Shown here: piece by piece, positions 5,003 through 34,416 of the stretch
Layout: each line of letters starts with the position of its first letter
Position numbering within the stretch: the first letter of the stretch is position 1
Source: Nanobdellota archaeon
Lineage (GTDB): Archaea > Nanobdellota > Nanobdellia > Pacearchaeales > GW2011-AR1
DNA: 64,000 nt
Reading direction: 5' to 3'
Assembly (NCBI GenBank): GCA_013329055.1
Contig: DUKY01000016.1
Location: 4,559-68,558 of the forward strand
The notes under the pieces: generated by a model
Seen by the model: only the letters and a program-made list of their open reading frames with translations
Told to the model about the DNA's origin: nothing
The model's database searches: none
Position numbers and translations under genes: made by a program

Positions 5003-5254
5003 AGCAGGGGAAAACTTACGACGTCAACAATTCAAGCTATATTGAAAAACGCAAAAAAGAAATCTAAAATAAAAAAAAGAATTTATCCTCATTTATTGAG
5101 GCATTCATTTGCAACGCATCTACTTGAACATGGAACAGAATTAAGAATTATTTAAAGATTACTCGGTCATTCAGATATTAAAACAACCCAAATTTACACC
5201 CAAATCTCCCAAGCATTAATTAAAAATGTAAAAAGCCCATTAGATAATTTATAA
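5003..5254 (+). pseudogene. tyrosine recombinase (XerC/D-like integrase) C-terminal remnant
   Basis: Not in the ORF track. Translates [54 protein letters not shown], with in-frame TAA at 5153-5155; N-terminal part missing. Confidence 0.9.
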
Positions 5255-17931: not shown

Positions 17932-18134
17932 ATTCAAAATCAAACTGTGCCTTCGCACAGAAAACTATTAAAGATTTTGAATACAAAGAAAATCTTGGAA
18001 AAAATTTTCTAGCATTTCCATTTCAGGAGAAATGAAAATACAAAGAAAATCTTGGAAAAAATTTTCTAGCATTTCCATTTCAGGAGAAATGAAAATACAA
18101 AGAAAATCCATAAAAAAGGAGAAATGAAAATATG
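17932..18134. repeat. hairpin element plus 57-bp tandem repeat containing an SD/ATG-like motif
   Basis: attcaaaatc..ctgtgccttcgcacag..gattttgaat, then a 57-bp unit x2 plus a partial (17980-18108); ggagaaatgaaaata occurs three times. Confidence 0.85.
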
Positions 18135-18905
18135 AATAAAAGAGGGCAAATGACTATATTTTTAATTATTGGGATAATCCTTATTGCTATTGCAATAATT
18201 TTATTTTTTTTGAACAAACAAGATATTTTAAATCCAAATCAAATAGAGGTAGATAAAAAAGAATTTTTACAGACATGCATTGAAGAACGAATTACAGAAA
18301 CAGTTAATTTAATTGCAATACAAGGCGGATCAATTAATCCAACTTTAAAGAAAACATATGATTTAGAAGATGGACTTGGAAAGAAAAATATTTCAATATT
18401 ATGTTATAATCAAAATTTTTACACGCCATGCATTAATCAGGAACCAATGCTGGTTAATCATGTTAGAGAGGAAATTGAAAAAAATATTAGTCAAGATGTT
18501 AAACAATGTTTTGATGATTTGGTTATAAGTTTAAATAAAAAAGGATTTGAAACAAGTGCATTATACAAGGGTTTTGAAATTAAATTACAACCTGATAAAG
18601 TTATTTTAGAGATTTATGGAGAGATTACAACTACCAGAACAGATGAAACTAAAAAGGAAAAAGATTTTGAAATTATAGTTAAAAGCAAGTTCTATAATTT
18701 AATAATTGTTGCTCAAGAAATACTCAGCCAAGAAGCAAGATTCTGTCATTTTGAAAATCTTGGTTATATGTTATTTTATAAAAATTTTAATATTGATAAA
18801 TTCAAAACAGGAGATTTTTATACATTTTATACTGTAGAAGACAGAGACAGCCAAGAAAAATTCAGGTTTGCAATAAGGGGGTGTGCAATTCCTCCGGGAA
18901 TATAA
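18132..18905 (+). CDS. class III (type IV pilin-like) signal peptide protein, paralog 1
   Basis: MNKRG|QMTIFLIIGII; conserved C...QGG...LCY...CINQEPML...RGCAIPPG. Confidence 0.8.
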   Translation: MNKRGQMTIFLIIGIILIAIAIILFFLNKQDILNPNQIEVDKKEFLQTCIEERITETVNLIAIQGGSINPTLKKTYDLEDGLGKKNISILCYNQNFYTPCINQEPMLVNHVREEIEKNISQDVKQCFDDLVISLNKKGFETSALYKGFEIKLQPDKVILEIYGEITTTRTDETKKEKDFEIIVKSKFYNLIIVAQEILSQEARFCHFENLGYMLFYKNFNIDKFKTGDFYTFYTVEDRDSQEKFRFAIRGCAIPPGI

Positions 18906-18909
18906 AGAG

Positions 18910-21900
18910 ATGGTAAAACATAATCAAAAAATTAATTTAATGTTAATTGTATTTTTTCAAATAATTTTAATATTAAATATGACTTTTGCAGAAAGTTATT
19001 TTTTACATCAAGCAGACCAAATAACAGAGAATATAATTAGTGATAAAAATGACAAAGATTTATCGGATTTAATTTCAAAATTTTTAATTGATTTTTTAAT
19101 TATAAAACAAATTGGAACAGTTTCTGCAATTGGCTGGAGTTGTTGCCCTGAAACAATTATAGGTGCAAAATGCCAAGAACTTGCAAGTGTTGATACTGAA
19201 AGCTGTGCTGTTGAGATGATTCCTTCTAAATGTGAAGAATTTTCAGATTGCCAACTTGGTTGCTGTGTTGATGAAATTGAAGGGCTTTGCAGTACAAAAA
19301 CTCCTAAATCAATTTGTAAAAGGGATAATGGTACTTGGAGTGAAGATGAAAATTGCTTGATTCAAGAATGCCAAAAAGGATGCTGTATGTTAGGGGAAGA
19401 AGCTTCATTTGTTACTGAAACCAGATGTGAACAGCTTTCGGATATCTCCGGAACACAAAAAGATTTCCGAGATATAAATAATGAAGTGGATTGTCTTATG
19501 CAAAAAGTAAGTTCTAAGTTAGGAGCCTGTGTATTGGATTTTGAACCAATAATGAATCGTACTAATAAAACTAATTCATCTATTACAGGAGCAATAATCT
19601 CTAATTCAACAAATAATAGAACAAGCACAAATTTTACTGATGATGAAACTTGCAGGATTGTTACAGAAAGCGAATGCTACGAAATGGGGGGAACATTTGC
19701 CGGGGGTTATTTATGTTCACACCCTGATTTAAATACCGGATGCAAAAGACAAACAACAATTAATTGTGTTGATTCAAGTGATGAAATTTTCTGGTTTGAT
19801 TCTTGCGGTAATAAAGAAAACATTTATTCTTCAGACAGGGATGCTTCATGGAATGGAGGGATGATGATGAGTAAAGAAAAAAGTTGCAATCCAGATGTAT
19901 CAAATGCAAATTCAAAGGATTGTGGGAATTGCAATTATTTTTTAGGAAGTATTTGTCAAGAGAGTAAAAACCCTAAGGTAAAAGATGGAAATTTTATCTG
20001 CAAAGATATGGATTGCATTGATGAAGATGGAACTAAAAGAAAAAACGGAGAGAGCTGGTGCATATATGATTCTTATATTGGAGACGGAAAAGATACTGTT
20101 GGAAGCAGACACTGGAAAAGAATGTGCATTGATGGAGAGATAAAAGTAGAACCTTGTGCAGATTATAGAGGAGAAATTTGTGTTCAGGCAAAAAATGAAG
20201 AAGGCGAATCGTTTTCATATGCAGCATGTGTTGTGAATGAAGCACTTGCATGTATTTTAGAGTATAATTCTTTAGAAACAGAAGAAGAACGGGATGCAAA
20301 GTGTTTAGAGAATAAAGATTGCATGATTAAAGAAGTTAAAGTGAGTAAAGACTTTACTTATGATATCTGTACTTCGAGATATCCTAAAGGATTTGATTTA
20401 GTAGAAACTGAAAAGGGTAAAACTCAAGAGAGATTATGTGATATCGGTTCACAAAATTGCACAGTTTTATTAAAGAAAGGTTGGTTTAAAAGTGATTATA
20501 CTTGTGAAAAAAATTGTGAATGCAAAACTAAATTATTTACTCAACAATTAAATGATGTTTGTATTTCCCTTGGAGACTGCGGTTCTTATATTAATTTTGT
20601 AGGAGACGGGAGCGATAATATTATTGTTAAAAATACTGAAAAGATTTCTTGGAGAGATTATATCGGTTTTGCTGAACCTGTAAAAGGTCAATTTGCTGAA
20701 CCAAAAAAGAATCGAGGACCAATGGGAGGAGAATCTAATGGAACAGACAGAAAAAGCAATGTTAAAGGGGATGATTTAAGTGGTCTTGATATGCTTGGAA
20801 CTATTGCTGGGGGTCTTGGGACATTAGTGGGAGGGGCACAATATTTATATGGGGGAGAGATACTTTATGCTTCAGGATATGGTTTTTTTGCTGCAGAGGG
20901 AGCTAGTGCAGGAGTTGGAGTTACACCAGTATTTGCTTCTTTTGGAGCAGCAGCAGCAGGTTTTGCAATTGGTTCAATAATTGGTTCTTATTGGGCTAAA
21001 TCAATTGGAGCTACTAAAGAAACTGCAATGATTATGGCAATTTCCGGAGGGGTTGCAGGAGCTGCAATAGGTTATGCTTTAGTACAAGCATCAATTTCTA
21101 CTTTCAACATTTATGTTATTGTTATAGCAATAATTATTATGATAATTGCTGCACTTTTTGGACCTAGATATAAAACTGAAAAAGTTACTTTCAAATGCCA
21201 GCAATGGTCTGCACCTACAGGAGGAGAAAATTGTGAAAAATGCAATGAAGACCCATTAAAACCATGTTCGGCATATAGATGCAGTTCACTTGGACAAGCT
21301 TGTCAACTTATGGAAAATGATACTAAAAACCCGATTTGCATTGGAAGTGATGATGATGGTAAACCCCCGATTATATTTCCATTAAATACATCAGAAGGAT
21401 ATAAATTCTTTGAGAAAACAAATGATGGAGTAAAGATACGAACAGATAATCAAAAATGCATTCCTGAATTTACAATGTTTGATTTTTCTTTAGGAACTGA
21501 TGAACTTGCTCAATGTAAGTATAGTTTTGAAAAAACAAAAGATTATGAAGAGATGACTGAAACATTCTTGGAATCAAATTCATATTCAATGAATCATTCA
21601 ACATCGTTTATGATGCCAAGTATTCAAAGTTTAGAAAATGATATTAATGACACAGAAATTACTGTTATTCAAGATTTAAAGGAAACATATGCTAAATTAA
21701 ATTTATATGTTCGTTGCCAAGATGTATATGGTAATAAAAATGTTAGAGAATATATTGTTAATCTTTGCATTAATGACGGACCTGATTTAACTGCTCCATA
21801 CATTAAACAGATGGATCCAAAAAATGGAGGCAACATTAAATTTAATTCTACACAAGCACAAATTACTGCTTATGTTAATGAACCTGCAGATTGTAAATAT

Positions 21901-22920
21901 GATACCATCCCGAAAAAAGCATATGAACAAATGAATAACTCGATGCAATGCAATACTCAATTAGATGGTTCTGGTTTATATGGCTGGCCATGTCAGGCGA
22001 CATTTAGTAATTTAAAACCTGGTGCAAATAAATTTTATCTAAAATGCAAAGACCAGCCTTGGTTAAATGAATCAAATACTTCAAGAAATGCTAATACAGA
22101 AGATTATATTTATACTTTAAATGTTGCTGAAAAAAAGTTTAATATTTCTTCTATTTCTCCTCAGGGTATAATTAAAAATGGTTTTGCTCCTTCACAGGTT
22201 AATTTAGAAGTTCAAACAATTGGCGGGGTAGAAAATGGCAAGGGAACATGCGAATATAGTTTTACACAAAATGGTGAATATTATCAATTCTTTTCTACAT
22301 TTAGTGCCAAACATAAACAAACATTTGAATTAATGGGAGGAAATTATACTATTTATGTTAAATGCGAAGATGAAACAAATGATCAAGATAGCAGAATATC
22401 ACAATTTGATTTACAGATTGATTCAACACCTCCGGTTGTAATAAATTATACTGAAGGAGAAAAAATTGAATTTTATACTGATGAAGATGCTGAATGTTAT
22501 TATCATCCTTCTAAATGTAATTTTGATTTTGAAAATGGCACTTTAATCAGTACTAAATTTACAACAGAACATCAAATTACATTTGACCCTAGCATAACAT
22601 ATCATATTAAATGCACAGATGTGTGGAAAAATACTAATCCTGATTGTGCAATTATTTTGAATGCTCCGGATTTAGACCTTCCAATGATTGTCAGGGCTTA
22701 TAATTCAAATTCTGAATTGAAGATTATGACTGATAAGATTTCTAAATGTTATTATGATTTTGAAACTTGTTTATTTAATCCGGTTAATGCTCCGTCTATG
22801 ACTGCAGATTTGACAAAAGAGCATACAGTTAATTGGATTCCCGGAAAAGTTTATCATATTAAGTGTGCAGATGCCTGGGGCAATTTTCCAATTGATTGCA
22901 CACGAAAAATTTCGATGTAA
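18910..22920 (+). CDS. large secreted Cys-rich protein with central hydrophobic Gly-zipper region and C-terminal Ig-like repeats, paralog 1
   Basis: Signal peptide; dense CC/CxxC N-half; GTIAGGLG..GAAAAGFAIG..IAIIIMIIAALFG; repeated TDE.A.C.Y...H...Y..C.D units. Confidence 0.85.
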   Translation: MVKHNQKINLMLIVFFQIILILNMTFAESYFLHQADQITENIISDKNDKDLSDLISKFLIDFLIIKQIGTVSAIGWSCCPETIIGAKCQELASVDTESCAVEMIPSKCEEFSDCQLGCCVDEIEGLCSTKTPKSICKRDNGTWSEDENCLIQECQKGCCMLGEEASFVTETRCEQLSDISGTQKDFRDINNEVDCLMQKVSSKLGACVLDFEPIMNRTNKTNSSITGAIISNSTNNRTSTNFTDDETCRIVTESECYEMGGTFAGGYLCSHPDLNTGCKRQTTINCVDSSDEIFWFDSCGNKENIYSSDRDASWNGGMMMSKEKSCNPDVSNANSKDCGNCNYFLGSICQESKNPKVKDGNFICKDMDCIDEDGTKRKNGESWCIYDSYIGDGKDTVGSRHWKRMCIDGEIKVEPCADYRGEICVQAKNEEGESFSYAACVVNEALACILEYNSLETEEERDAKCLENKDCMIKEVKVSKDFTYDICTSRYPKGFDLVETEKGKTQERLCDIGSQNCTVLLKKGWFKSDYTCEKNCECKTKLFTQQLNDVCISLGDCGSYINFVGDGSDNIIVKNTEKISWRDYIGFAEPVKGQFAEPKKNRGPMGGESNGTDRKSNVKGDDLSGLDMLGTIAGGLGTLVGGAQYLYGGEILYASGYGFFAAEGASAGVGVTPVFASFGAAAAGFAIGSIIGSYWAKSIGATKETAMIMAISGGVAGAAIGYALVQASISTFNIYVIVIAIIIMIIAALFGPRYKTEKVTFKCQQWSAPTGGENCEKCNEDPLKPCSAYRCSSLGQACQLMENDTKNPICIGSDDDGKPPIIFPLNTSEGYKFFEKTNDGVKIRTDNQKCIPEFTMFDFSLGTDELAQCKYSFEKTKDYEEMTETFLESNSYSMNHSTSFMMPSIQSLENDINDTEITVIQDLKETYAKLNLYVRCQDVYGNKNVREYIVNLCINDGPDLTAPYIKQMDPKNGGNIKFNSTQAQITAYVNEPADCKYDTIPKKAYEQMNNSMQCNTQLDGSGLYGWPCQATFSNLKPGANKFYLKCKDQPWLNESNTSRNANTEDYIYTLNVAEKKFNISSISPQGIIKNGFAPSQVNLEVQTIGGVENGKGTCEYSFTQNGEYYQFFSTFSAKHKQTFELMGGNYTIYVKCEDETNDQDSRISQFDLQIDSTPPVVINYTEGEKIEFYTDEDAECYYHPSKCNFDFENGTLISTKFTTEHQITFDPSITYHIKCTDVWKNTNPDCAIILNAPDLDLPMIVRAYNSNSELKIMTDKISKCYYDFETCLFNPVNAPSMTADLTKEHTVNWIPGKVYHIKCADAWGNFPIDCTRKISM

Positions 22921-23557
22921 CGTAGAATTTCGAAATTTTTCGTGCCACTAAATCACCAAACGCCTTGCCTACGCAAGGAAAAAAACAAGATTTAGTTTGC
23001 ATGAAAAATCTCGATGTAAAGAATGAAGTGCCACTAAATCACCAAACGCCTTGCCTACGCAAGGAAAAAAACAAGATTTAGTTTGCATGAAAAATCTCGA
23101 TGTAAAGAATGAAGTGCCACTAAACCCCCCGCTGTGTCTACACACAGAAAACTATTAAGGATTTAGTTGGCACGCAAAATTTCAATGTAAAGAATGAAGT
23201 GACACTAAATCACCTACGCCTTGCCTAAAGCAAGGAAAAAAACAAGATTTAGTTTGCATGAAAAATTCCAATGTAAAGAATGAAGTGACACTAAACCCCC
23301 CGCTGTGCCTTCAACAAGAATCAAAGATTCTCGAGCATGACAACTTCACGAAACAACAAGAAGTTGTCATACGCACAGAAAAATATTAAAGATTTAGTCG
23401 GTGCTAAAGATTCAAAGAATCTTGGTTCCACTAAATCCTGCTGTGTCTACACACAGAAACTATTAAGGATTTAGTCGGCATGAAAAATTTCGATGTAAAG
23501 AATGAAGTGCCACTAAATCACCAACGCCTTGCCTAAAGCAAGGAAAAAAACAAGATT
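22901..23557. repeat. array 1 of composite palindromic units (about 86-bp period, 7 units)
   Basis: Repeating gtgccactaaa-[inner hairpin]-gatttagtt(t/g)gca(t/c)gaaaaat.tc.atgtaaagaatgaa. Confidence 0.92.
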
Positions 23558-23597
23558 AAACCCAAAAGGTAATAAATAACAAAAATTTAAAATTAAT

Positions 23598-24395
23598 GTG
23601 AAAAAAGAGATGAGTTTTGATAAAAGAGGACAGATGACGATGTTTATTGTAATTGCGATTTTAATTATTAGCGGAATTGCACTACTAATATTTTTTAATA
23701 AAGGGACTCCATTAATCGGAAGTCATCAGGAAATTAATAAAAAAGAATTTTTAGAAAGTTGTGTTGAAGAAGAGGTCAAAAATACATTAGAAATAATTGG
23801 TTTACAAGGAGGATATTTTAGCGAGAGCAAAATAATGACTAAGCCATTTAGTTCAGGAAGTACATATGGACAAAAAAACATTGCAGTTTTATGTTATAAT
23901 AAAAATTATTTTGATCCTTGCATTAATCAGGATCCTATGTTAATTCAGCATTTAAATGATGAAATTAAATTGGGGATTTCTAAAACTGTTAAAGATTGTT
24001 TTGATGCTTTAACATTAAGTTTGGAAAATCAAGGATTTGAGGTACAAGCAAAATATAATGGGTTTGATGTCCAATTATTGCCTGAAAAATTAAAATTAGA
24101 TATTAAGGGGGAAATTACAATAAGTCAAACAGGATCTACAACAAAAGAAAAAGATTTTGAAATTCTTTTTAGAACCAGATTATATGATATCGCAATAGTT
24201 GCCCAGAATATTATTAATCAGGAAGCTTCAACATGTTCATTTGACCATTCAGGGTTCATGTTATATTTTAAAGAATTTAGTATTGATAAAATAAGAACTT
24301 CAGATTCATTTGATATATTTGCAGTTAAATCTAAAGATAGTTATGAAATATTTAATTTTGCATTAAGAGGATGTGTAATTCCTCCGGGAGTATAA
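23598..24395 (+). CDS. class III signal peptide protein, paralog 2
   Basis: DKRG|QMTMFIVIAIL; ends RGCVIPPGV; start may be the ATG at 23610. Confidence 0.8.
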   Translation: MKKEMSFDKRGQMTMFIVIAILIISGIALLIFFNKGTPLIGSHQEINKKEFLESCVEEEVKNTLEIIGLQGGYFSESKIMTKPFSSGSTYGQKNIAVLCYNKNYFDPCINQDPMLIQHLNDEIKLGISKTVKDCFDALTLSLENQGFEVQAKYNGFDVQLLPEKLKLDIKGEITISQTGSTTKEKDFEILFRTRLYDIAIVAQNIINQEASTCSFDHSGFMLYFKEFSIDKIRTSDSFDIFAVKSKDSYEIFNFALRGCVIPPGV

Positions 24396-24396
24396 A

Positions 24397-27300
24397 ATGG
24401 ATAATAAAATTAAATTCAAATTAGGACTAATTGTTTTCTTAATTGGATTTTTAATTATGAACAACATTTATGCTTTGGATATTAATTGCTGTCCAAAAAT
24501 GATTGATAAATCCATATGCCAAGAAATCCTTGATACAGATACATCAACATGTTCTGTATCTCCACTTCCGGTTAGATGTGAAGAGTTTTCGGATTGCCAA
24601 TTAGGATGTTGCATTGATAAAACTGAAGGTCTTTGCACAACTCAAGCTCCAAGATCAGCCTGTGAAGATAATAATGGAACTTGGGAAGATGATGCATCAT
24701 GTTCTATTTCAGAATGTCAAAAAGGTTGTTGTGTAATTCAGGAGAATAGTTTATTTGTAACTGACCAAAGATGCGACCAGCTTTCAAATATTTCAGGAGT
24801 TGAAAAAGATTTTAGAGAAGTACAAACAGAGATGCAATGTCTGATGTTAAAAGGAAGCGGTGACAAAGGTGCTTGTGTTTTTGGATTTGTACCACGTATT
24901 AATGAAACTAATAATACAAAAAATAATTCCAAAACTATTAAACCTTATACTTCTAATAATACTATTAATAATTCTAATTCTACGAATAATACAAATTCGT
25001 CTATCACAGGTTACCTTGTTTCAAATAATTCAAGAATGCCCAGAGAATCAAATGAATCAGAAGAAGATAATGGTGCTTGCAGGATTACAACTGAATCTGA
25101 ATGTTATGACATGGGGGGAATGTTTGCTAATAGCTATTTATGTTCTCACCCTGATTTAAATACCGGATGTAAAAGACAGACAAGTATTGATTGTTCTGAT
25201 ACAAGTGATGAAATTTTTTGGTTTGATTCCTGCGGGAATAAAGAGAACATTTATTCTTCAAATAAAGATGCTTCGTGGAATGGCGGGATGATGATGAGCA
25301 AAGAACAAAGTTGTGGAGCAGGTTCTTCAAATGCTAATTCACAAGATTGCGGTAACTGTAATTATATTTTGGGAAGTATTTGTGCTGAAAGTGAAAACCC
25401 TAAAGTTAAAGACGGAGATTTTATCTGCAAAGATATGAATTGTGTTGAGAAAGATGGGACCAAAAGACAAAATGGTGAAAGCTGGTGTGTATATGATTCT
25501 TATATTGGCGACGGAAAAGATACTGTTGGAAGCAGACACTGGAAAAGACTCTGCACTGATGGGGAGATAGATGTTGAACCTTGTGCAGATTATAGAGCAG
25601 AACTTTGTGCACAAAAAGTAACAGAAGTTGAAATGCCTGAAGGGGGAAAAAAATCACTTACTGTTGCTAAGTGTGTTATTAATGAAGGGTTAAATTGCAT
25701 CTTTGATTATAATGACCCCAAGGATGCTGAAAAAACTGCAAAATGTTTGAAGAATACTGATTGTATGATTAATCATGTTTATGTAAGTGAATACTTTCAA
25801 TTTGATTTTTGCACTGCAAGGTATCCAAAAGGATTTGAATTAAAAAATGAAGATGATAAAGAAGACAGGGGGGTTAAACAAAAAGCATTATGCTCAATGA
25901 GTTCACAAAATTGCACAGTTATCTATGAAAAAAAGAGAAAAGGAATGTTTGGCAGTAAATGGGTGTGTGTTGCTAACTGTGAATGCCAAACAGATGCATT
26001 TATCGCAGAAATGAATGATCTTTGCATCTCTATGGGAGATTGCGGAACTTACATTAATTATATTGGAGAAGGAACAAAGAATATTGGTTTAGTGAATAAC
26101 CCTGGAGATGTTGCTTGGGAAGCATACAAACATTTTGCAGAACCAGTTAAGGGTCAATTTGTTGCACCAAAAGAATTTAGAGGTCCACAAGGAGAGGCTG
26201 GAGGAGAAGAGGAGATTAATACTTATAGACATAAATATACTAATGGTTATAGCGGAGAAGTTAATATTTGGGGAACTAATCCGGATGATGGATGGATTGC
26301 TAATTGGAACGGGCATGTTGAGATAAAATGGCTTTCAAAAACTTTTGGAATGGATGATTATGATGCTTATATGTGGTCGCAATTAACAACAGTAATTATT
26401 AAAAAAGAACTTTTGGGAGTTTATGAAACTGGTAGTTATGGAATTCCTTCAATTGTATGGGTGATTATTGATTGGATACAGGGAATTGGAAAAACTAAAA
26501 AAGTAATTGTTGAATTTCATTGTAATCCTTGGAAAGCTCCGTTAGGAGGGATAAATTGTGAAAAATGCAATGGTGATTTATTAAAACCTTGTTCAAAATA
26601 TAGATGTGATTCTTTAGGGCAAGCGTGTATGTTATCAAATTTAAGTGTTGAATTTCCACTTTGTTTATCTGCAGATGCTAATGACGGTAAACCGCCAGTT
26701 ATTTCTCCACTTAATGTTTCTAAAGGTTACAAATTCATGGAAGAAACAGCAAATGGAGTAAAGATTAGAACTGAAGATGGAAAATGCATACCGGAGTTTA
26801 CTACTGTTAAATTTTCTTTGAAAACAGATAAATTTGCTCAATGCAAATACAGTTTAAATAGAACTAAAGATTATACAGATATGGATTTATCTTTTGCAGA
26901 AACAACTGCTTTTACGAAAAATCATACAACCTCTTTTATGATGCCTAGTTATGATAGTTTAATTAATGAACTCGATCCTGAGGTAGAATTTAGTCGGGAT
27001 AAATTTGCAAATTTCGATATGTTTGTCAGATGTCAAGATGGATATGGCAATGTGAATAAAGTTGAATATGTTGTTAATCTTTGTGTTAATGATGGACCGG
27101 ATAAAACTGCTCCGTGGATAACAAGAGTTATTCCGGAAAATGGGAAAACTTTAAGATTTAATACTACAAGTAGTCCAGTTACAGTCTATGTAAATGAACC
27201 TGCAAATTGCAGATATGATACAATTGCAAATAAAAAATATGAAAATATGACTTATAACATGACATGCCAAACTGAACTTTCACAGGTAAGTCTTGGTGGC

Positions 27301-28236
27301 TGGCCTTGTTCTGCAAATCTTACTAATTTAAGTTTAGGAAATAATAATTTTTATTTTAAATGCAAAGATCAGCCTTGGTTACCGGAAGATAATGAAACAA
27401 GGAATGTTAATTCAGAAGATTATGTTTATTCGTTGTATGTTTCAGAACATAAATTTAATATTAGTTCAATTTCTCCTCAGGATATAATCAAAAACGGATT
27501 TGAGCCTGCTCCTGTAACATTAAAAGCTCAAACTTTTGGGGGAGTAGATTCAGGAAAAGGTACATGTGAATATAGTTTTGCACAAAACGGAAGTTATTAT
27601 CAATTCCTTAAAACATTTGGATATACTCATACGCAAGTATTTGATTTAATGGGAGGAAATTATACTATTTATGTTAAATGCCATGATGAATCAGACGACG
27701 AAGCTTATGGAACTGCAAATTTTGAATTACAAATTGATACAACTCCGCCAGTTATAATTAATTATTCTGAGGATGGAAAAATTGAACTTTATACAGATGA
27801 AAAAGCTGAATGCTTTTATCATCCGACTAAATGCAACTTTGATATTGATAATGCTACTTCGATGACTGTTGGTTTTTCACAAGAACATTTTGCAAATTGG
27901 GACCCAGGTATTACTTATCATGTTAAATGTGCAGATGTTTGGGGTAATACTAATCCAGATTGTGCAGTTATTTTGAATTCTCCGGATTTAGAACTTCCAA
28001 TTATTACCAGAGCATATAATGCGGGCAATTCATTAAATATTATTACTAGTGAAATTGCTAAATGTTATTATGATTTTGAAACGTGTTATTTTAAACCGGA
28101 AAATGCTCCATCTATGACTCCGGATTTAGAAACAGAACATACAGTTAATTGGATTCCTGGAAAGGTTTATCATATTAAATGTGCTGATGCATGGGGCAAT
28201 TATCCTATGGATTGCTCACGAAAAATTTCGATGTAG
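24397..28236 (+). CDS. large secreted Cys-rich protein, paralog 2 (different central region)
   Basis: Collinear with paralog 1 (e.g. YDSYIGDGKDTVGSRHWKR, ends RKISM) except for the central segment. Confidence 0.85.
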   Translation: MDNKIKFKLGLIVFLIGFLIMNNIYALDINCCPKMIDKSICQEILDTDTSTCSVSPLPVRCEEFSDCQLGCCIDKTEGLCTTQAPRSACEDNNGTWEDDASCSISECQKGCCVIQENSLFVTDQRCDQLSNISGVEKDFREVQTEMQCLMLKGSGDKGACVFGFVPRINETNNTKNNSKTIKPYTSNNTINNSNSTNNTNSSITGYLVSNNSRMPRESNESEEDNGACRITTESECYDMGGMFANSYLCSHPDLNTGCKRQTSIDCSDTSDEIFWFDSCGNKENIYSSNKDASWNGGMMMSKEQSCGAGSSNANSQDCGNCNYILGSICAESENPKVKDGDFICKDMNCVEKDGTKRQNGESWCVYDSYIGDGKDTVGSRHWKRLCTDGEIDVEPCADYRAELCAQKVTEVEMPEGGKKSLTVAKCVINEGLNCIFDYNDPKDAEKTAKCLKNTDCMINHVYVSEYFQFDFCTARYPKGFELKNEDDKEDRGVKQKALCSMSSQNCTVIYEKKRKGMFGSKWVCVANCECQTDAFIAEMNDLCISMGDCGTYINYIGEGTKNIGLVNNPGDVAWEAYKHFAEPVKGQFVAPKEFRGPQGEAGGEEEINTYRHKYTNGYSGEVNIWGTNPDDGWIANWNGHVEIKWLSKTFGMDDYDAYMWSQLTTVIIKKELLGVYETGSYGIPSIVWVIIDWIQGIGKTKKVIVEFHCNPWKAPLGGINCEKCNGDLLKPCSKYRCDSLGQACMLSNLSVEFPLCLSADANDGKPPVISPLNVSKGYKFMEETANGVKIRTEDGKCIPEFTTVKFSLKTDKFAQCKYSLNRTKDYTDMDLSFAETTAFTKNHTTSFMMPSYDSLINELDPEVEFSRDKFANFDMFVRCQDGYGNVNKVEYVVNLCVNDGPDKTAPWITRVIPENGKTLRFNTTSSPVTVYVNEPANCRYDTIANKKYENMTYNMTCQTELSQVSLGGWPCSANLTNLSLGNNNFYFKCKDQPWLPEDNETRNVNSEDYVYSLYVSEHKFNISSISPQDIIKNGFEPAPVTLKAQTFGGVDSGKGTCEYSFAQNGSYYQFLKTFGYTHTQVFDLMGGNYTIYVKCHDESDDEAYGTANFELQIDTTPPVIINYSEDGKIELYTDEKAECFYHPTKCNFDIDNATSMTVGFSQEHFANWDPGITYHVKCADVWGNTNPDCAVILNSPDLELPIITRAYNAGNSLNIITSEIAKCYYDFETCYFKPENAPSMTPDLETEHTVNWIPGKVYHIKCADAWGNYPMDCSRKISM

Positions 28237-28895
28237 GGAAATTTCGAAATTTTTCGTGCAACTAAACCCCCCACTGTCCTTCAACGAGAATCAAAGATTC
28301 TCGAGCATGACAACTTCACGAAACAACAAGAAGTTGTCATACGCACAGAAAAATATTAAAGATTTAGTTGGCATGAAAAATTTCAATGTAAAGAATAAAA
28401 TGCCACTAAATCACCAAACCTTAAGCAAGATTTAGTTTGCATGAAAAATTTTAATGTAAGTTTAGAAAAACTAAATCAACCAACGCCTTGCCTACAATGA
28501 GAATCAAAGATTCTCAAGCATGACAACTTCGCGAAACAACAAGAAGTTGTCATACGCAAGGATTAAAACAAGATTTAGTTGGCATGAAAAATTCCAATGT
28601 AAAGAATGAAGTACAACTAAATCACCAAACGCCTTGCCTACGCAAGGATTAAAACAAGATTTAGTTTGCATGAAAAATTCCAATGTAAAGCGAAAGTTTA
28701 GTGCCACTAAACCCCCGCTGTGCCTTCAACGAGAATCAAAGATTCTCGAGCATGACAACTTCATGAAACAACAAGAAGTTGTCATACGCACAGAAAAATA
28801 TTAAAGATTTAGTCGGTGCTAAAGATTCAAAAAATCTTGGCACAACTAAATCACCAAACCTTAAGCAAGATTTAGTTTGCATGAAAAATTCCAAG
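28217..28895. repeat. array 2 of composite palindromic units (6 units, 3 with the nested 60-bp insert)
   Basis: Same actaaa...tttagt outer stem and gcatgaaaaatt.caatgtaa linker as array 1. Confidence 0.92.
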
Positions 28896-28947
28896 AGTAA
28901 ATTTCAATTTGGTTAACTATATAAATAATAAATTACATAAAATAAAT

Positions 28948-29703
28948 ATGAAAAGGGGACAGGTTACATTATTTATAATCATGGGTATGATGATTATTAT
29001 ATTAGGTATTTTATTATTCCTTTTTTCTCCAAAAATACAAGATCTTTTCTTAACTGAAACAAAAAATCCTTCTTCGTTTATTCAGGATTGCATTGAAGAA
29101 GATATCAGTTTAGCAGTTAATGTATTATCTTTAAATGGGGGAAGCATTAATCCTGAACATTATTTTGTTTATGATGGTTCAAGATTAGAATATTTGTGTT
29201 ATATCGAGGGATTTTATCAAACTTGTGTTGTTCAGCAACCTATGTTAAAGAGACATATTGAGATGGAAATTGAAAAAGCAATTACTCAAAAATCTGAAGA
29301 ATGTTTTGCGGATTTAAAAGAAAGTTATGAAAGGAAAGGTTATCAAGTAAGTTTATCTAAAGGAGAGATTGATGTTGAACTTTTGCCTCAAAAAATTGTT
29401 ACGACTTTTAATAATTCTTTAACTTTGACTAAAGAATCAACAGAAAGTTATAAATCAGTAAGAGTTGTAATAAATAATAATCTTTATGAATTGGTAAGTA
29501 TTGCTAATAGTATTATAGATTGGGAATCAAAATACGGAGATTCTGAAACAACAGTTTATATGAATCTTTATCATGATTTAAAGGTTGAAAAGAAAGTACA
29601 TTCCGAGGGTACAACGGTTTATGTTTTAACAGATAGAGATAATTTAAATAAATTCCAATTTGCTTCAAGAAGTGTGGCATGGCCACCAGGATATGGATTT
29701 TAA
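28948..29703 (+). CDS. class III signal peptide protein, paralog 3
   Basis: MKRG|QVTLFIIMG; FIQDCIE..GGSI.P..YLCY..CVVQQPML..RSVAWPPG. Confidence 0.8.
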   Translation: MKRGQVTLFIIMGMMIIILGILLFLFSPKIQDLFLTETKNPSSFIQDCIEEDISLAVNVLSLNGGSINPEHYFVYDGSRLEYLCYIEGFYQTCVVQQPMLKRHIEMEIEKAITQKSEECFADLKESYERKGYQVSLSKGEIDVELLPQKIVTTFNNSLTLTKESTESYKSVRVVINNNLYELVSIANSIIDWESKYGDSETTVYMNLYHDLKVEKKVHSEGTTVYVLTDRDNLNKFQFASRSVAWPPGYGF

Positions 29704-29704
29704 A

Positions 29705-30055
29705 ATGAAAGAAGAATTTAAACAATGGTTACAAATGGCTAAAGAAGACAGTAACGAAAAATTATTAAAAGATTTTAAAGATAAACTTTCAAATCATATT
29801 CCGATAACTAAAATGTTATTATTTGGTTCAAGAGCAAGAAGAGATGAAAATAAATGGAGTGATTTTGATTTAATAATTGTCAGTGATAATTTTCAAAATA
29901 AAGACACATTACACAGACCTTTTGAGTTATATGATTATTGGGATTTAGATTATCCTGTAGATTTTATATGCTACACTCCTAAAGAATATAATAAACTCAA
30001 AAATAAAATGGCTATTTTAAAAAATGCATTAAAAGAGGGAATAGAAATAAAATGA
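29705..30055 (+). CDS. MNT nucleotidyltransferase fused to a HEPN N-terminal stub
   Basis: LFGSRAR...SDFDLIIVS; the N-terminal MKEEFKQWLQMAKED resembles a HEPN first helix. Confidence 0.75.
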   Translation: MKEEFKQWLQMAKEDSNEKLLKDFKDKLSNHIPITKMLLFGSRARRDENKWSDFDLIIVSDNFQNKDTLHRPFELYDYWDLDYPVDFICYTPKEYNKLKNKMAILKNALKEGIEIK

Positions 30056-31596
30056 AAAACAAAATAATTTTTAGTTTGGTGTTAGGTATCTTTTTAATTA
30101 GTTTAGCTTATGCAGATATATCTTATTGTTGTGAAAAAACAGTTAATGGTGCGTGGTGCCAAAATTCTCCAAAAGAAAATTGTGACGAGGGATTTAGAAG
30201 CACTCCTGCTTCATGTGAAGCTACTTCTTATTGTAAACTTGGAACTTGTATGGATAGTCAAGAAGGGACTTGCATGGAAAATTCTCCTCAAAAAGTTTGT
30301 GAAGAAAGCGGGGGAGTTTGGAAGTTAGGTTCTGCTGATGAAATTCCACAATGTTCTTTAGGTTGCTGTGCAATTGGTGACGGGGCAGCGTTTGTTACTC
30401 AAACAAGATGTAAAAGACTTTCATCAATTTATTCATTAAAGACTGATTTTAGGACAGATGTTGCAAGTGAATTTGAATGTATTTCAAGTGCTAAATCAAG
30501 TGCTAAGGGTGCTTGTGTATTTGAAAGTGAATACCAAAGAACTTGTTTACTTTTAAGTCAGGCAGAATGTTCAGAGAGGGGGGGAACAAATGAAAGTGAA
30601 TTTCACGAGGGATATTTATGTTCTGATGAATCATTAGGTACAGATTGCGGTCCAACTGAACAAACAAGATGTGTTGAGAATAGAGATGAAGTTTATTTTG
30701 TTGATAGTTGCGGTAATTTGGCGAATATTTACGATGCTTCAAAAATAAAGGATAAAAATTATTGGTCTAAGATTTATGATAAAACACAAAGTTGCGGGAC
30801 TGATTCCGGAAATGCTAATTCTGCTTCTTGTGGTAATTGTGATTATTATTTAGGTAGTATGTGCAAAGAATATAAAAGAGATGCTGATAAAGTTCAGCCA
30901 AATTATGGGAATTTTATTTGCAGAGATTTAAGCTGTAATTTTGATGGTAAAAAATATAATCATGGTGAAACATGGTGTCAAAATAGTGAAGGTGTAGATA
31001 AGAATTTACCTGGAAGCAGATATTTTAGGGCAGTATGTTACAATGGGGAAGTCAGTATTGAACCTTGTGCAGATTTTAGACAAGAAATTTGTTTAGAATC
31101 AAAGGTTGAAAGTTTTTCTGCTGCTGGTTGCATTGCAAATAAATGGCAAGATTGTTTTAGTCAAAGTAGTCAAAAAGATTGCGAAAACCAAGATAGAAGG
31201 GATTGTGTTTGGATGGAGAAGGTAAATCTTACCGGGGGAAATACTTCTAAAGGAGTTCAATGTGTTGCTAAATTTGCTCCGGGATTTAAATTCTGGGAAT
31301 CCGGAAGTCAGACACAAACGAGTACAACACCCACAACAACTACTGGAAATGCTAGTGCTGGTGCAGGTTCTAATAGTTCTAATTTTGGTGCGATGCCTTC
31401 TCAATCTCAGTCATTATGTTCACTTGCAGATTCTAAATGTACAGTGCAGTATGAAAAAAAATTGTTTGGCAGTAAAAAATGTGTTAAAAATTGTGAATGT
31501 TTAGACCAAAAATGGCAGGAAACTCAAAATGAAATTTGTGTTTCAATCGGGGATTGCGGAAATTCTACTAATTTTATTGGTGTTAAGGGATATTAA
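30052..31596 (+). CDS. secreted Cys-rich protein, paralog 3 (N-terminal half only)
   Basis: CCEKT..CQ..LGCC..FVTQTRC..DSCGN..GSRYF..EPCADFRQEIC..; stops at IGDCG..NFIG. Confidence 0.82.
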   Translation: MKNKIIFSLVLGIFLISLAYADISYCCEKTVNGAWCQNSPKENCDEGFRSTPASCEATSYCKLGTCMDSQEGTCMENSPQKVCEESGGVWKLGSADEIPQCSLGCCAIGDGAAFVTQTRCKRLSSIYSLKTDFRTDVASEFECISSAKSSAKGACVFESEYQRTCLLLSQAECSERGGTNESEFHEGYLCSDESLGTDCGPTEQTRCVENRDEVYFVDSCGNLANIYDASKIKDKNYWSKIYDKTQSCGTDSGNANSASCGNCDYYLGSMCKEYKRDADKVQPNYGNFICRDLSCNFDGKKYNHGETWCQNSEGVDKNLPGSRYFRAVCYNGEVSIEPCADFRQEICLESKVESFSAAGCIANKWQDCFSQSSQKDCENQDRRDCVWMEKVNLTGGNTSKGVQCVAKFAPGFKFWESGSQTQTSTTPTTTTGNASAGAGSNSSNFGAMPSQSQSLCSLADSKCTVQYEKKLFGSKKCVKNCECLDQKWQETQNEICVSIGDCGNSTNFIGVKGY

Positions 31597-33140: not shown

Positions 33141-34322
33141 ATGTTAATTGGTCTTGTTGGCAAGCCTTCTGTGGGAAAGAGTACTTTTTTTAAAGCGGCA
33201 ACTTTGGCAGAGGTTGAAATTGCTTCTTATCCTTTTACTACAATTAAGGCAAATCATGGTGTTGGTTATGTTAAAGTTGATTGCATTGAGAAGGAATTTC
33301 ACACAAAATGCAACCCAAACAAAGGTTTTTGCATTAATCAAAATAGATTTGTTCCTATTGATTTAATGGATGTTGCGGGTTTAGTTCCCGGGGCTTCAGA
33401 AGGGAAGGGTTTAGGAAATCAATTTTTAAATGATTTAAGGGATGCTAATGCTTTTATTCATATTGTTGATTCTTCCGGAACAACAGATACTGAAGGTAAA
33501 CCGACTAAAGATCATGACCCTTGCAAGGATATTATATTTTTGGAAGATGAGTTAAATAAATGGTATTATAATATTTTAATTAAGGCTTGGAGAACTTTTG
33601 CCAGAAAAGCTGAGATGCAAGATATTAGTTTTAGCGAAGCGATTGTAAAACAATTTTCCGGCTTGAAGGTTACTGAAAATCAGGTTAAAGATGTTTTATT
33701 GAAAGCTAAATTACCGGAAAAACCTACAAATTGGTCTGATGAAGATTTAATGACTTTTTCCGCGAGATTAAGAGAAGTTAGTAAGCCTATGATTTTGGCG
33801 GCAAATAAGTGTGATTCAGATAAGTCTAAAGAAAATATTGAGAAAATGAGAAAAACTTTTCCAAATATACTGATTTATCCTTGTTCTGCGGATTCAGAAC
33901 TTGCGTTAAGGCAGGCAGCTAAAGCAGAGATTATTGAGTATATACCTGGTGAAAGTCATTTTAAGATTAAGAAAGAATTAAATCCTAAGCAATCTGAAGC
34001 TCTTAACAGGATTCAGGAAGATGTTCTAAATGTTTATGGGGGTACAGGAGTTCAGGAGATTCTTAATAAAGTTGTTTTTGATTTGTTGGATTATTTGGCT
34101 ATTTTTCCTGCTTCTGCAAATAAGCTTGGAGATAGCAAAGGGAACATACTGCCTGATTGTTTTTTGTTAAAAAATGGTTCTACTGCATTAGATTTTGCTT
34201 ATTATTTACATACTGATTTTGGAAAAAATTTTATTAAGGCGATTGATGCAAAGACTAAGCAGATAAAAGGTAAAGAGTATAAGTTAAAGAATCGAGATGC
34301 ACTAGAGATTATCACAAGATAA
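33141..34322 (+). CDS. ychF: redox-regulated ATPase YchF (archaeal Obg-family)
   Basis: GKPSVGKST, YPFTTI, DVAGLVPGASEGKGLGNQFL, NKCD, TGS domain. Confidence 0.95.
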   Translation: MLIGLVGKPSVGKSTFFKAATLAEVEIASYPFTTIKANHGVGYVKVDCIEKEFHTKCNPNKGFCINQNRFVPIDLMDVAGLVPGASEGKGLGNQFLNDLRDANAFIHIVDSSGTTDTEGKPTKDHDPCKDIIFLEDELNKWYYNILIKAWRTFARKAEMQDISFSEAIVKQFSGLKVTENQVKDVLLKAKLPEKPTNWSDEDLMTFSARLREVSKPMILAANKCDSDKSKENIEKMRKTFPNILIYPCSADSELALRQAAKAEIIEYIPGESHFKIKKELNPKQSEALNRIQEDVLNVYGGTGVQEILNKVVFDLLDYLAIFPASANKLGDSKGNILPDCFLLKNGSTALDFAYYLHTDFGKNFIKAIDAKTKQIKGKEYKLKNRDALEIITR

Positions 34323-34416
34323 TCTCTGTGCCACTAAACCCCAACTGCTGTGCCTACGCACAGAAAGTACCAAAGGTTTAGTTGACACTAGAGATCATCA
34401 CAAGATAATTTCTGTG
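34300..34416. repeat. single palindromic unit flanked by a duplicated ychF terminus
   Basis: cactagagat(t/c)atcacaagataat(c/t)tctgtg at 34300-34330 and 34386-34416, around ccactaaacc..ctgtgcctacgcacag..ggtttagttg. Confidence 0.9.

Follow-up and report, generated by a model that had tools for sequence, protein, structure and literature searches.

The window analysed here, a stretch of 64,000 nt from the genome of a tiny archaeon whose source habitat is groundwater, contains two tandem arrays of hairpins, and in four of these units a 60-nt double hairpin is found inside the loop of another hairpin. The question raised by this locus is how one structured element came to lie within another at a single nucleotide position, and whether it was placed there as mobile DNA or copied as part of a composite.

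The arrays and their filled units

The host hairpin, here called Y, is a dispersed element of ~50 nt, in which a covarying outer stem encloses the inner hairpin CTGTGC-CTWC-GCACAG. We call a Y unit filled (Y+) when it carries the insert, and the module family to which the insert belongs M2H. The relevant features of the window are the following, with the score of each filled unit against our model R1.

17932..18131, + strand: canonical arrangement of an empty Y, M2H units and then the ATG of the first pilin-like gene (18132)
22901..22944, + strand: hairpin H0, with a 15-bp stem, which holds the stop codon of a gene for a 1345-aa Cys-rich surface protein (18883-22920)
22947..23557, + strand: array 1, seven directly repeated Y units (types A, A, B, A', B+ and B, and a truncated A'), of ~86 nt each including spacer
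23290..23398, + strand: filled Y unit (B+) with outer stem ACTAAA../..TTTAGT and inner stem CTGTGC/GCACAG; insert at 23311-23370, equivalently 23313-23372; 126.6 bits
28217..28258, + strand: hairpin H0 of array 2, which holds the stop codon of a paralogous 1279-aa gene (24397-28236)
28261..28368, + strand: filled Y unit (B+) with one G missing from the 5' arm of the inner stem; insert at 28281-28340; 120.5 bits
28405..28436, + strand: short 'C' unit, a Y unit that has lost the tip of its inner hairpin by deletion, together with part of its 3' linker; second copy at 28845-28876
28470..28579, + strand: filled Y unit of type A (CCTTGC/GCAAGG); insert at 28494-28553; 112 bits
28706..28813, + strand: filled Y unit (B+); insert at 28726-28785; 127.6 bits
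34333..34382, + strand: solitary empty Y, 11 nt after a GTPase gene, flanked by a 31-nt direct repeat

Both arrays are intercistronic and on the coding strand of an operon for pilin-like and giant surface proteins. All of their units are in direct orientation, and the spacers between units are diverged copies of the 5' part of H0. In the canonical arrangement, Y (17932-17982) is followed by two 57-nt M2H units (17983-18039 and 18040-18096) and a partial unit (18097-18131), with GGAG and ATG located inside the 3' arm of hairpin 2. The direct repeat around the solitary Y (34300-34330 and 34386-34416, 29/31 identical) includes the stop codon of the GTPase gene. We detected no tRNA genes in the window and no Rfam match at gathering score, the only matches in 22700-29000 being at chance level (E >= 5).

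An initial annotation had described four 60-bp copies of the insert, each between CCT on the left and ACGCA on the right, three in type-B loops and one in a type-A loop. BLAST and direct reading of the sequence bear out the four copies, and the unit sequences bear out their flanks and hosts, with the inner stem CTGTGC/GCACAG in type B and CCTTGC/GCAAGG in type A. The copies are 95-100% alike and all lie within the two arrays. When copy 1 was searched against the whole 1.19-Mb genome (84.9% complete), the full-size matches were 100, 98.3 and 96.7% identical over 60 nt and 96.3% identical over 54 nt (E values of 6e-29 to 1e-20); no further copy was found, the remaining matches being fragments of 12-22 nt. 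What might have been a fifth copy, where contig C18 ends, was rejected, a single A-type Y unit joining the start of C26 to the end of C18 being the better explanation. The empty sites reported by the annotation are also present: TGCCTACGCA occurs in the units at 22947, 23033 and 28616, and in the solitary Y at 34333-34382 that follows the Obg/YchF-like GTPase gene.

The insert lies where the CTWC tetraloop of the Y inner hairpin ends on its 3' side. The first base of the 60-mer, which varies between T and A, is position 3 of the tetraloop, CTTC or CTAC, that belongs to the host, and an equally valid and simpler reading of the boundaries would be an insert AAYGAG...GTCATRC placed after CTWC. 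The annotation's statement that there is no target duplication requires qualification, since up to 3 nt are common to the two sides: the exact junction can be shifted over 3 nt (TAC...TAC) in the type-A copy and in both copies from another genus (G165), and over 1 nt in the three type-B copies and in a copy from a related strain, with a perfect TAC repeat in only 3/7 filled units. In this lineage the same insert position is found in three host-stem variants (CCTTGC/GCAAGG, CTGTGC/GCACAG and CTGTGT/ACACAG), and a fourth host is found in another genus, so that one structured element does indeed sit inside the apical loop of another at an identical nucleotide in different host stems.

Folding and the M2H module family

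Both hairpins fold in the way given by the initial annotation, with an RNA z-score of -5.1 for the 60-mer and 0/200 shuffles folding as well; the filled units have z-scores of -4.7 to -7.5, again with 0/200 shuffles folding as well. The stem of hairpin 1 is 7-8 bp long and closes a 3-nt loop, that of hairpin 2 is 11-13 bp long with a loop of 12 nt, and the two hairpins have no common sequence. In this lineage and one other genus, the position of M2H at the edge of the Y tetraloop gives a three-way junction, which is the predicted minimum-energy fold of the filled units. Across the seven of them, 94.5% of cells pair, against 22-43% in slid controls, and six pairs have changed on both sides, a value matched by 0/500 shuffles. 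Between this genome and G165-C31, six of seven substitutions fall in the 15 loop bases (binomial P ~0.001), and hairpin 1 of the type-A filled unit bears a compensatory C:G to U:A change. The helices are backed by compensatory change in a second alignment as well, which leans towards the model because it was fitted to it. A MAFFT alignment of 18 empty Y units, in which the outer stems were mis-registered, was left out of model building. Y+ is kept by selection on base pairing.

These folds bear on two other readings of the 60-mer. According to the first, a Y RNA would have acquired it as an archaeal intron of the endonuclease type, through intron transposition as proposed for tRNA genes of Thermoproteales. 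The host is an archaeon with a splicing endonuclease gene (PF01974, 98.4 bits, C6:7612-7866), removal of the insert gives back a perfect tetraloop hairpin, and both size and precedent are suitable, archaeal introns being described in passages of PMC4090602 as spanning 11 to 129 nt, with similar introns at different positions in different tRNAs interpreted as transposition. The bulge-helix-bulge is defined there as a 4-bp helix between two 3-nt bulges at the junctions (PMC4090602), and a scripted search of the seven filled units with five cut placements each found none, 4/4 pairs with an outer helix of at least 2 bp never being reached. The best candidate had a central helix with 3/4 pairs beside an outer helix of 0-1 bp; to form it, the host stem and hairpin 2 would have to be melted, against the predicted three-way junctions. 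With no sign of Y as a stand-alone RNA gene, we consider an intron very improbable.

The second reading, that the insert encodes a peptide, is scarcely credible. The reverse complement of the B copies (23311, 28281 and 28726) does run from ATG to TGA with exactly 19 codons plus stop. This strand is opposite to the operon, a different loop base removes the stop from the A copy and from G165, and substitutions between genera in the hairpin loops alter the peptide; the mini-ORF was rejected on these sequence grounds alone.

The 60-mer is a copy of M2H and not a private element. This two-hairpin module consists of hairpin 1 (RAGAAW-loop-WTTCTY), the linker AGCAT, hairpin 2 and a 3' end ATAY. The left 26 nt of the insert are identical (26/26) to a module of another genus, G385, which precedes a different hairpin and an ATG, and in the present genome an IscS-like gene has two tandem module copies at its 5' end. 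M2H is widespread in this archaeal family (at least 10 genera), and its usual place is directly after Y or a stop codon, ending at a start codon. Run over a 150-genome sample of the family, model R1 gave stand-alone matches to its positions 21-83 in other genera, and three of the four inspected have an ORF-opening ATG within 8 nt of the module end. The order Y, M2H, ATG was found at 17932-18131 of the window, on C1, in G165, G315 and G355, and for 8/8 copies in G232. Stand-alone copies are co-oriented with the gene and end at or near the ATG in most inspected cases, and Y is co-oriented in 7 of ~9 informative intergenic regions. Among 13 stand-alone copies listed by eye, 11 are preceded by TAC, AAC or TTC. 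A genome-wide scan for 'hairpin-AGCAT-hairpin' showed no enrichment over control pentamers (46/2605, against 10-81 for the controls), and membership in M2H therefore rests on the inspected cases and the covariance model. A hairpin-rich stretch in polB (C13, ~29961-30070) was rejected as a different module.

The nested copies are likewise co-oriented, but in this genome no start codon follows them. All of them have one particular hairpin 2, here without a Shine-Dalgarno-like loop, whereas that of stand-alone copies is locus-specific. Solitary Y and M2H copies can have flanking direct repeats of 27-35 nt, against at most 3 nt common at the nested insert, so nesting took place without that footprint.

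Filled units are also found in a related strain, in which a single one constitutes the entire array at the same locus (contig L049), and in G165, at two different loci. Both G165 units have a common outer stem, CCACGAAATC/GATTTCGTTG, and the inner-stem change GCATAG, and they carry compensatory changes. Because these host mutations are shared, host and insert were copied together there and the composite was inherited as a unit. A tight search pattern for filled loops missed the two units because of the GCATAG arm and a relaxed one found them; a loose pattern was noise, its controls being as high as its matches, and the tight and relaxed patterns were used instead. The G165 insert is 88% identical to the one described here, across genera whose flanking proteins are 29-64% identical. 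A DNA search with a 317-nt array piece against 40 relatives gave only weak matches outside this genome (E >= 1.6e-4).

The arrays vary between strains. Among assembled contigs from four sequencing runs, those from three runs join 28258 of array 2 directly to 28614, skipping 355 nt, or three units. In array 2, the tip-deleted C units indicate that hairpin tips have been lost by deletion. A contig present in two runs, in which the A+ unit has its 5' linker joined to an empty unit with a CTAAA loop, was left out of the counts.

Origin of the nested copies

The initial annotation had attributed the nesting to an HUH enzyme of IS200/IS605 or RAYT type, which would target hairpin loops in single-stranded DNA and place the element 3' to a short target without duplicating it. 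In all cases the insert does follow CTWC, with 1-3 nt in common at the junction, and a hairpin lies near each end of it. IS608 inserts 3' of TTAC without duplication. However, elements of the IS200/IS605 group have two subterminal hairpins that resemble each other and are recognised by a single enzyme, and the two hairpins of the insert are dissimilar in sequence, stem length and loop. A profile search for Y1_Tnp (PF01797) gave no match in this genome (84.9% complete), although 6 of 14 control genomes matched in the same search, and no TnpB (PF07282) was found in it either. The copies are confined to the arrays and not dispersed in the genome, and hairpin 2 is absent from all other records of the species-genome collection (0 matches), with one locus in a metagenome collection. 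Given also the joint duplication of host and insert in G165, the attribution is not supported, and we regard such transposition as improbable. Genes for IS110 and Cas1 were not found in the same 84.9% of the genome. The element does not resemble a DDE-type MITE, as its ends (AACGAG... and ...GTCATAC) are not inverted repeats and TAC is repeated in only 3/7 units, or a REP/REPIN, as PF01797 has no match and the units are direct and not paired inverted.

M2H may nonetheless be an active non-autonomous mobile module whose machinery, not necessarily of HUH type, recognises the WAC/WTC motif exposed by the tetraloop of Y; the copies in A, B and G165 would then be independent insertions. The identical position in four different host stems points this way, as do the TAC, AAC or TTC before most stand-alone copies and the divergence of the inserts, far below that of their hosts: A+ and B+ inserts differ at only 3-4/60 positions, against three inner-stem pairs and both linkers in the hosts. 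The 26-nt core occurs in another genus in a different context, and its 26/26 identity, together with the 88% identity to G165, could also mean recent mobility. On the other side, filled loops are rare and local relative to strict-pattern empty ones (4, all at one locus, against 12 in this genome; 2 against 5 in G165; 0 against 8 in G232), and in G165 at least the composite was copied as a unit. Moreover, the nested copies have their single hairpin 2 and lack the 27-35-nt flanking repeats of some solitary modules. No transposase-like gene was found in the genome; since this is only 84.9% complete, the enzyme could be missing from the assembly. We consider independent insertion possible but doubtful.

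Our preferred explanation, to which we assign a probability of about one half, is that of a selected three-way-junction composite amplified with its array, with Y+ not the product of repeated HUH-type transposition. The four copies in the window would have arisen by strain-variable tandem amplification of array units. The type-A host may have been filled from an adjacent unit, through local exchange in the form of gene conversion or template switching, or else by another insertion route, and the TAC common to the loop and the module 3' end would help such exchange. For the original nesting, two TAC-microhomology deletions in a Y-M2H-Y array could suffice, since M2H in its native setting follows (T)AC and has ATAC at its end. 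As the arrays lie on the coding strand between cistrons, the composite would most likely act as RNA in the operon transcript, where it may be a stabiliser, a processing site or a translation-control structure.

Several observations weigh against the amplified composite. The A+ and B+ inserts are far closer than their hosts, so the insert moved between hosts after these had diverged. Conversion needs both end points to fall within 5-7 nt of common sequence, a situation unfavourable for ordinary homologous recombination. Closing pairs of both kinds (C:G and T:A) are present in this lineage in filled as well as empty units, in all four combinations, which means recurrent precise gain or loss. The initial annotation had named two findings as contrary to its own proposal: confinement of the insert to the arrays, which is what we see in this genome, and a type-A copy that is a simple recombinant, which it is not as a single crossover, because A-type sequence is present on both sides up to the loop.

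A broader suggestion, which we advance only tentatively and think somewhat unlikely, is that Y and M2H are the two halves of a modular leader/intercistronic RNA system, not described before, of Pacearchaeota-type (DPANN) archaea that is also self-propagating DNA. Host replication/repair, or an enzyme outside the known transposase families, would copy its modules beside gene ends, where 20-35 nt of target would be duplicated, and at WAC motifs within the loops of the other module.

Comparison with known systems

Small structured repeats are well known in bacteria and hardly described in DPANN archaea, for which our literature search found no description; in the part of a 2024 review that concerns archaeal MITEs, these are given only for Sulfolobus, haloarchaea and a few others (PMC10969869). 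The present case shows two modules as regular partners at cistron boundaries, which can fuse into a stable three-way junction evolving under structural constraint and whose arrays vary between co-existing strains. It offers a handle on the activity that places such repeats, and on their nature as regulatory RNA, as selfish DNA or as both.

The arrays resemble those of REP/BIME elements, as far as these are described in the sources cited here, in that small intergenic hairpin repeats are clustered at gene ends and a hairpin repeat hosts another element. In enterobacteria and pseudomonads, a hairpin repeat is the specific landing site of the REP-targeting insertion sequences IS1397, ISPa11, ISPsy8 and others, as outlined in PMC1525189 (for IS1397 also by a title cited in PMC3116915). 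Unlike REP/BIME, the units here are all direct, no RAYT gene was found and the host is a DPANN-type archaeon; unlike the REP-targeting insertion sequences, the nested element has only 60 nt, carries no transposase gene or inverted ends and has at most 3 nt in common at its junction. Gene-less hairpin-forming repeats spread in a reduced genome are also seen in Rickettsia, whose palindromic elements and MITE-like repeats are portrayed in passages of PMC10969869 as short and tolerated at or inside gene ends. The Rickettsia palindromic elements are of ~150 bp and known for in-frame insertions in genes, whereas M2H lies at a regular place and in a regular orientation with respect to start codons, and is found inside a partner element.

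Transposed archaeal tRNA introns (Fujishima et al. 2010, in the account given by PMC4090602) likewise place the same short insert at a structurally defined site in different structured hosts, but the bulge-helix-bulge motif is absent here and the host is not a tRNA. With IS200/IS605-derived palindrome-associated elements, the insert shares a hairpin near each end and a position beside a fixed tetranucleotide without clear duplication, 1-3 nt being common at the junction here, although here no enzyme was found, the hairpins are unlike and the copies are not dispersed. The Nostoc-type cyanobacterial SDR, which Elhai et al. are said to have described in 2008, reportedly are very small repeats with no known transposase that can nest and keep local secondary structure. 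They belong to another domain of life and have other sequences.

Insert copies and their operon setting

G000, the Nanobdellota genome that holds the window, comprises 1,187,295 bases in 26 contigs, with a G+C content of about 28% and a completeness of 84.9%; the window corresponds to C15:4559-68558. An eIF2-gamma gene marks G000 as archaeal, and genomes of its relatives range from 0.4 to 1.6 Mb. All four 60-nt copies listed in the initial annotation are there, and a whole-genome search finds no further one in G000. They lie in two intergenic arrays, each 3' of one of two paralogous giant Cys-rich genes, neither of which has a Pfam match, and each followed by a small gene of a further paralogous set:

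18883-22920, giant Cys-rich gene
23311-23370, 60-nt copy
23598-24395, small gene downstream of the array
24397-28236, giant Cys-rich gene, paralog
28281-28340, 60-nt copy
28494-28553, 60-nt copy
28726-28785, 60-nt copy
28909-29703, small gene downstream of the array

The two gene/array blocks are a tandem segmental duplication, offset by 5316 nt. Judging by the N-terminus read at 18132, the small genes are putatively pilin-like. Downstream of the operon is a single open reading frame of 4475 aa (40170-53597).

Each copy is nested in the CTWC tetraloop of Y, a dispersed hairpin element whose inner stem is of type A (CCTTGC/GCAAGG) or type B (CTGTGC/GCACAG). The annotation's description of the flanks, of the hosts (three of type B, one of type A) and of the empty sites is correct, and the 60-mer does fold into two hairpins (7-8 bp and 11 bp; z = -5.1, no dinucleotide shuffle matching the fold). 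The variable base with which it begins is position three of the host tetraloop (CTTC or CTAC), and an equivalent reading puts the insert, as AAYGAG...GTCATRC, 3' of CTWC. The extent of junction ambiguity varies: 3 nt (TAC...TAC) for the A copy and for the pair in G165, a genome of a different genus, and 1 nt for the B copies and for L049, a metagenome contig of a close relative. Because of this ambiguity, the claimed absence of target duplication is not strictly established.

The Y host family

Y consists of a covarying outer stem of 6-13 bp akin to xAAAAYC (for example ACTAAATC/GATTTAGT, GCAAAAAC/GTTTTTGC and CAGGATT/AATCCTG), linkers of 1-8 nt on the 5' side and 9-14 nt, A-rich, on the 3' side, and a near-invariant inner hairpin, CTGTGC-CTWC-GCACAG. 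Of 28 distinct copies whose flanks are long enough to judge, all have an outer stem of at least 6 bp and 27 one of at least 7 bp, with per-copy shuffle frequencies of 0-0.07. The strict 16-nt inner pattern has 12 copies in G000, and a scan of 301 genomes of the order finds it in 4, including G165 (5 copies), G232 (8) and G231 (1); its reversed control did not occur in the same search. Types A and B differ at three pairs, all fully compensated, and a second A-type copy sits at a contig end in G000. No long ORF crosses Y at any of the 21 loci checked, and Y is co-oriented with the genes in 7 of about 9 regions between same-direction genes.

In G315 (L075, ~1480-1520), the otherwise invariant inner stem carries a compensated change, CTGCGC/GCGCAG. 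Several paralogous small genes of G232 (L037, L040, L042, L044) have Y 20-40 nt past an ATG with in-frame read-through (..FQNLSCAFAQIAIKDFE..), which may reflect either translation of Y or true starts located further downstream. The start of C26 and the end of C18 in G000 overlap by AAAA and would jointly form one complete A-type unit, so that the two contigs probably adjoin each other or have further array between them.

Filled units and M2H modules in relatives

At the orthologous site 3' of the second giant gene, L049 has a lone, filled unit with the host stem CTGTGT/ACACAG, in which the final two insert bases lengthen hairpin 2 to 13 bp. This variant recurs in contigs of two other runs, and contigs of three runs link 28258 directly to 28614, with three units missing. 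G165 has two filled units, one in a homologous operon at a different gene junction, the other on another contig with a 63-nt insert in which hairpin 1 has a G:C pair compensated to A:U and hairpin 2 gains 1 bp. Both share their outer stem and an inner-stem change (GCATAG, a G:U pair), which indicates that host and insert were duplicated together. The G000 and G165-C31 inserts differ at 7 positions, 6 of them within 15 loop positions. Taken together, the seven filled units keep pairing in 94.5% of cells, with two-sided changes at six pairs (shuffles reaching this, 0/500); slid controls pair at 22-43%.

The insert is a nested copy of M2H, a two-hairpin module family (hairpin 1 - AGCAT - hairpin 2). 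A search of 400 family genomes for AAYGAGAAT-N3-9-ATTCTCRAGCAT gave matches in 3, and G385 has a 26-nt core identical to that of two B+ (filled type B) copies of the window, followed by a different hairpin and a start codon. A covariance model built on the seven filled units, R1, was searched against 150 family genomes and matched in 29, with the full composite confined to four copies in G000, which score 112-128 bits, and two in G165, with scores of 100 and 113 bits. Full-length matches then drop to 41.5 bits in G368, where M2H sits within a different 4-bp stem and not in Y. Many matches are restricted to model positions 21-83 and represent stand-alone modules, as do four of the ten aligned matches (G321, G144, G325, G350); three of these four follow the order stop codon, module, ATG, with a purine-rich hairpin 2 loop containing GGAG or AGGA. 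The usual order is Y, M2H, ATG (window 17932-18131, C1, G165 at L030, G315, G355 and 8/8 G232 copies). Over ten genomes, pairing holds in 94.8% of cells, and of the 34 pairs in the model 29 change on both sides (shuffles reaching this, 0/500), in an alignment that was fitted to R1 and hence leans towards structure.

Two exact 57-nt tandem units and a partial one (17983-18131) precede the first pilin-like gene, each repeating the gene's GGAG and ATG region within the hairpin 3' arm, so that decoy start sites precede the true start. Two tandem M2H also stand at the 5' end of an IscS-like gene (L025, G000:C16:59400-59800, minus strand, ~100-240), where a duplication of ~31 nt takes in the ribosome-binding region plus 14 bases from the beginning of the coding sequence, and hairpin 2 carries in its 5' arm the complement of the start of the gene itself. 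These units measure 68 and 71 nt, both 2 mod 3, so the short frame from each decoy ATG closes on a TGA that shares bases with the following ATG (ATGA).

A second abundant composite of G000 reads CTCA-RAGAAT-loop-ATTCTY-TGGGAC, then a TTCAAAAG...CTTTTGAAG hairpin, then TNAATCGAAC. It has about 20 copies, several at contig ends, and read in reverse complement it looks like a tRNA T-arm with CCA. Sites include:

C11:108280-108810, second composite
C2:48100-48300, second composite
C19:98640-98810, second composite
C13:25150-25300, second composite
C23:56800-56920, second composite

Gain, loss and possible role

A+ and B+ inserts differ at only 3-4 of 60 positions, two of them a compensated pair; the A and B hosts are set apart by three inner-stem pairs and by both linkers. 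Either closing pair is seen filled and empty in the G000 lineage, so the insert was precisely gained or lost there more than once. Short-patch conversion or template switching between neighbouring units would fit, as would precise loss by slippage between TAC repeats over a strongly folded segment, or a genuine site-specific insertion activity. The HUH-type enzyme considered in the annotation finds no support: Y1_Tnp, TnpB, IS110 and Cas1 are all without a match in the 84.9%-complete genome, and the sole match of the recombinase search of G000 is one tyrosine-recombinase fragment with an internal stop codon. We favour the local, enzyme-free routes because filled units are rare and limited to one locus, were copied with their hosts in G165, share their array with tip-deleted units that show such slippage, and contain a module natively bounded by (T)AC...ATAC. 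With the module so bounded, the observed junctions are, by inference, exactly what a pair of microhomology deletions within a Y-M2H-Y array would leave.

The tyrosine-recombinase match (~5006-5209; G000:C15:9564-9767) is open over 86 aa apart from a single internal TAA and may be a broken XerA-like gene.

Direct repeats of 27-35 nt of neighbouring sequence flank solitary Y (3' of a GTPase gene, and on C16) and likewise bound the M2H copies at the IscS-like gene; with a repeat of at most 3 nt, the nested insert is without this footprint. G000 has a splicing endonuclease gene, and an intron reading is very unlikely, as none of the seven filled units shows a bulge-helix-bulge at any of the equivalent cut placements, by the definition in PMC4090602. 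The two ends of the insert do not form inverted repeats, which speaks against a MITE.

A limited search of open-access text found nothing relevant on comparable repeats in DPANN or Pacearchaeota, which does not prove their absence. Because Y and M2H elements lie on the coding strand between cistrons, compensatory changes maintain their helices, and G:U occurs among the pairs in the G165 genus, the evidence points to a putative role in the operon transcript, which may be comparable to that of REP-type stabilisers or translation-initiation hairpins.
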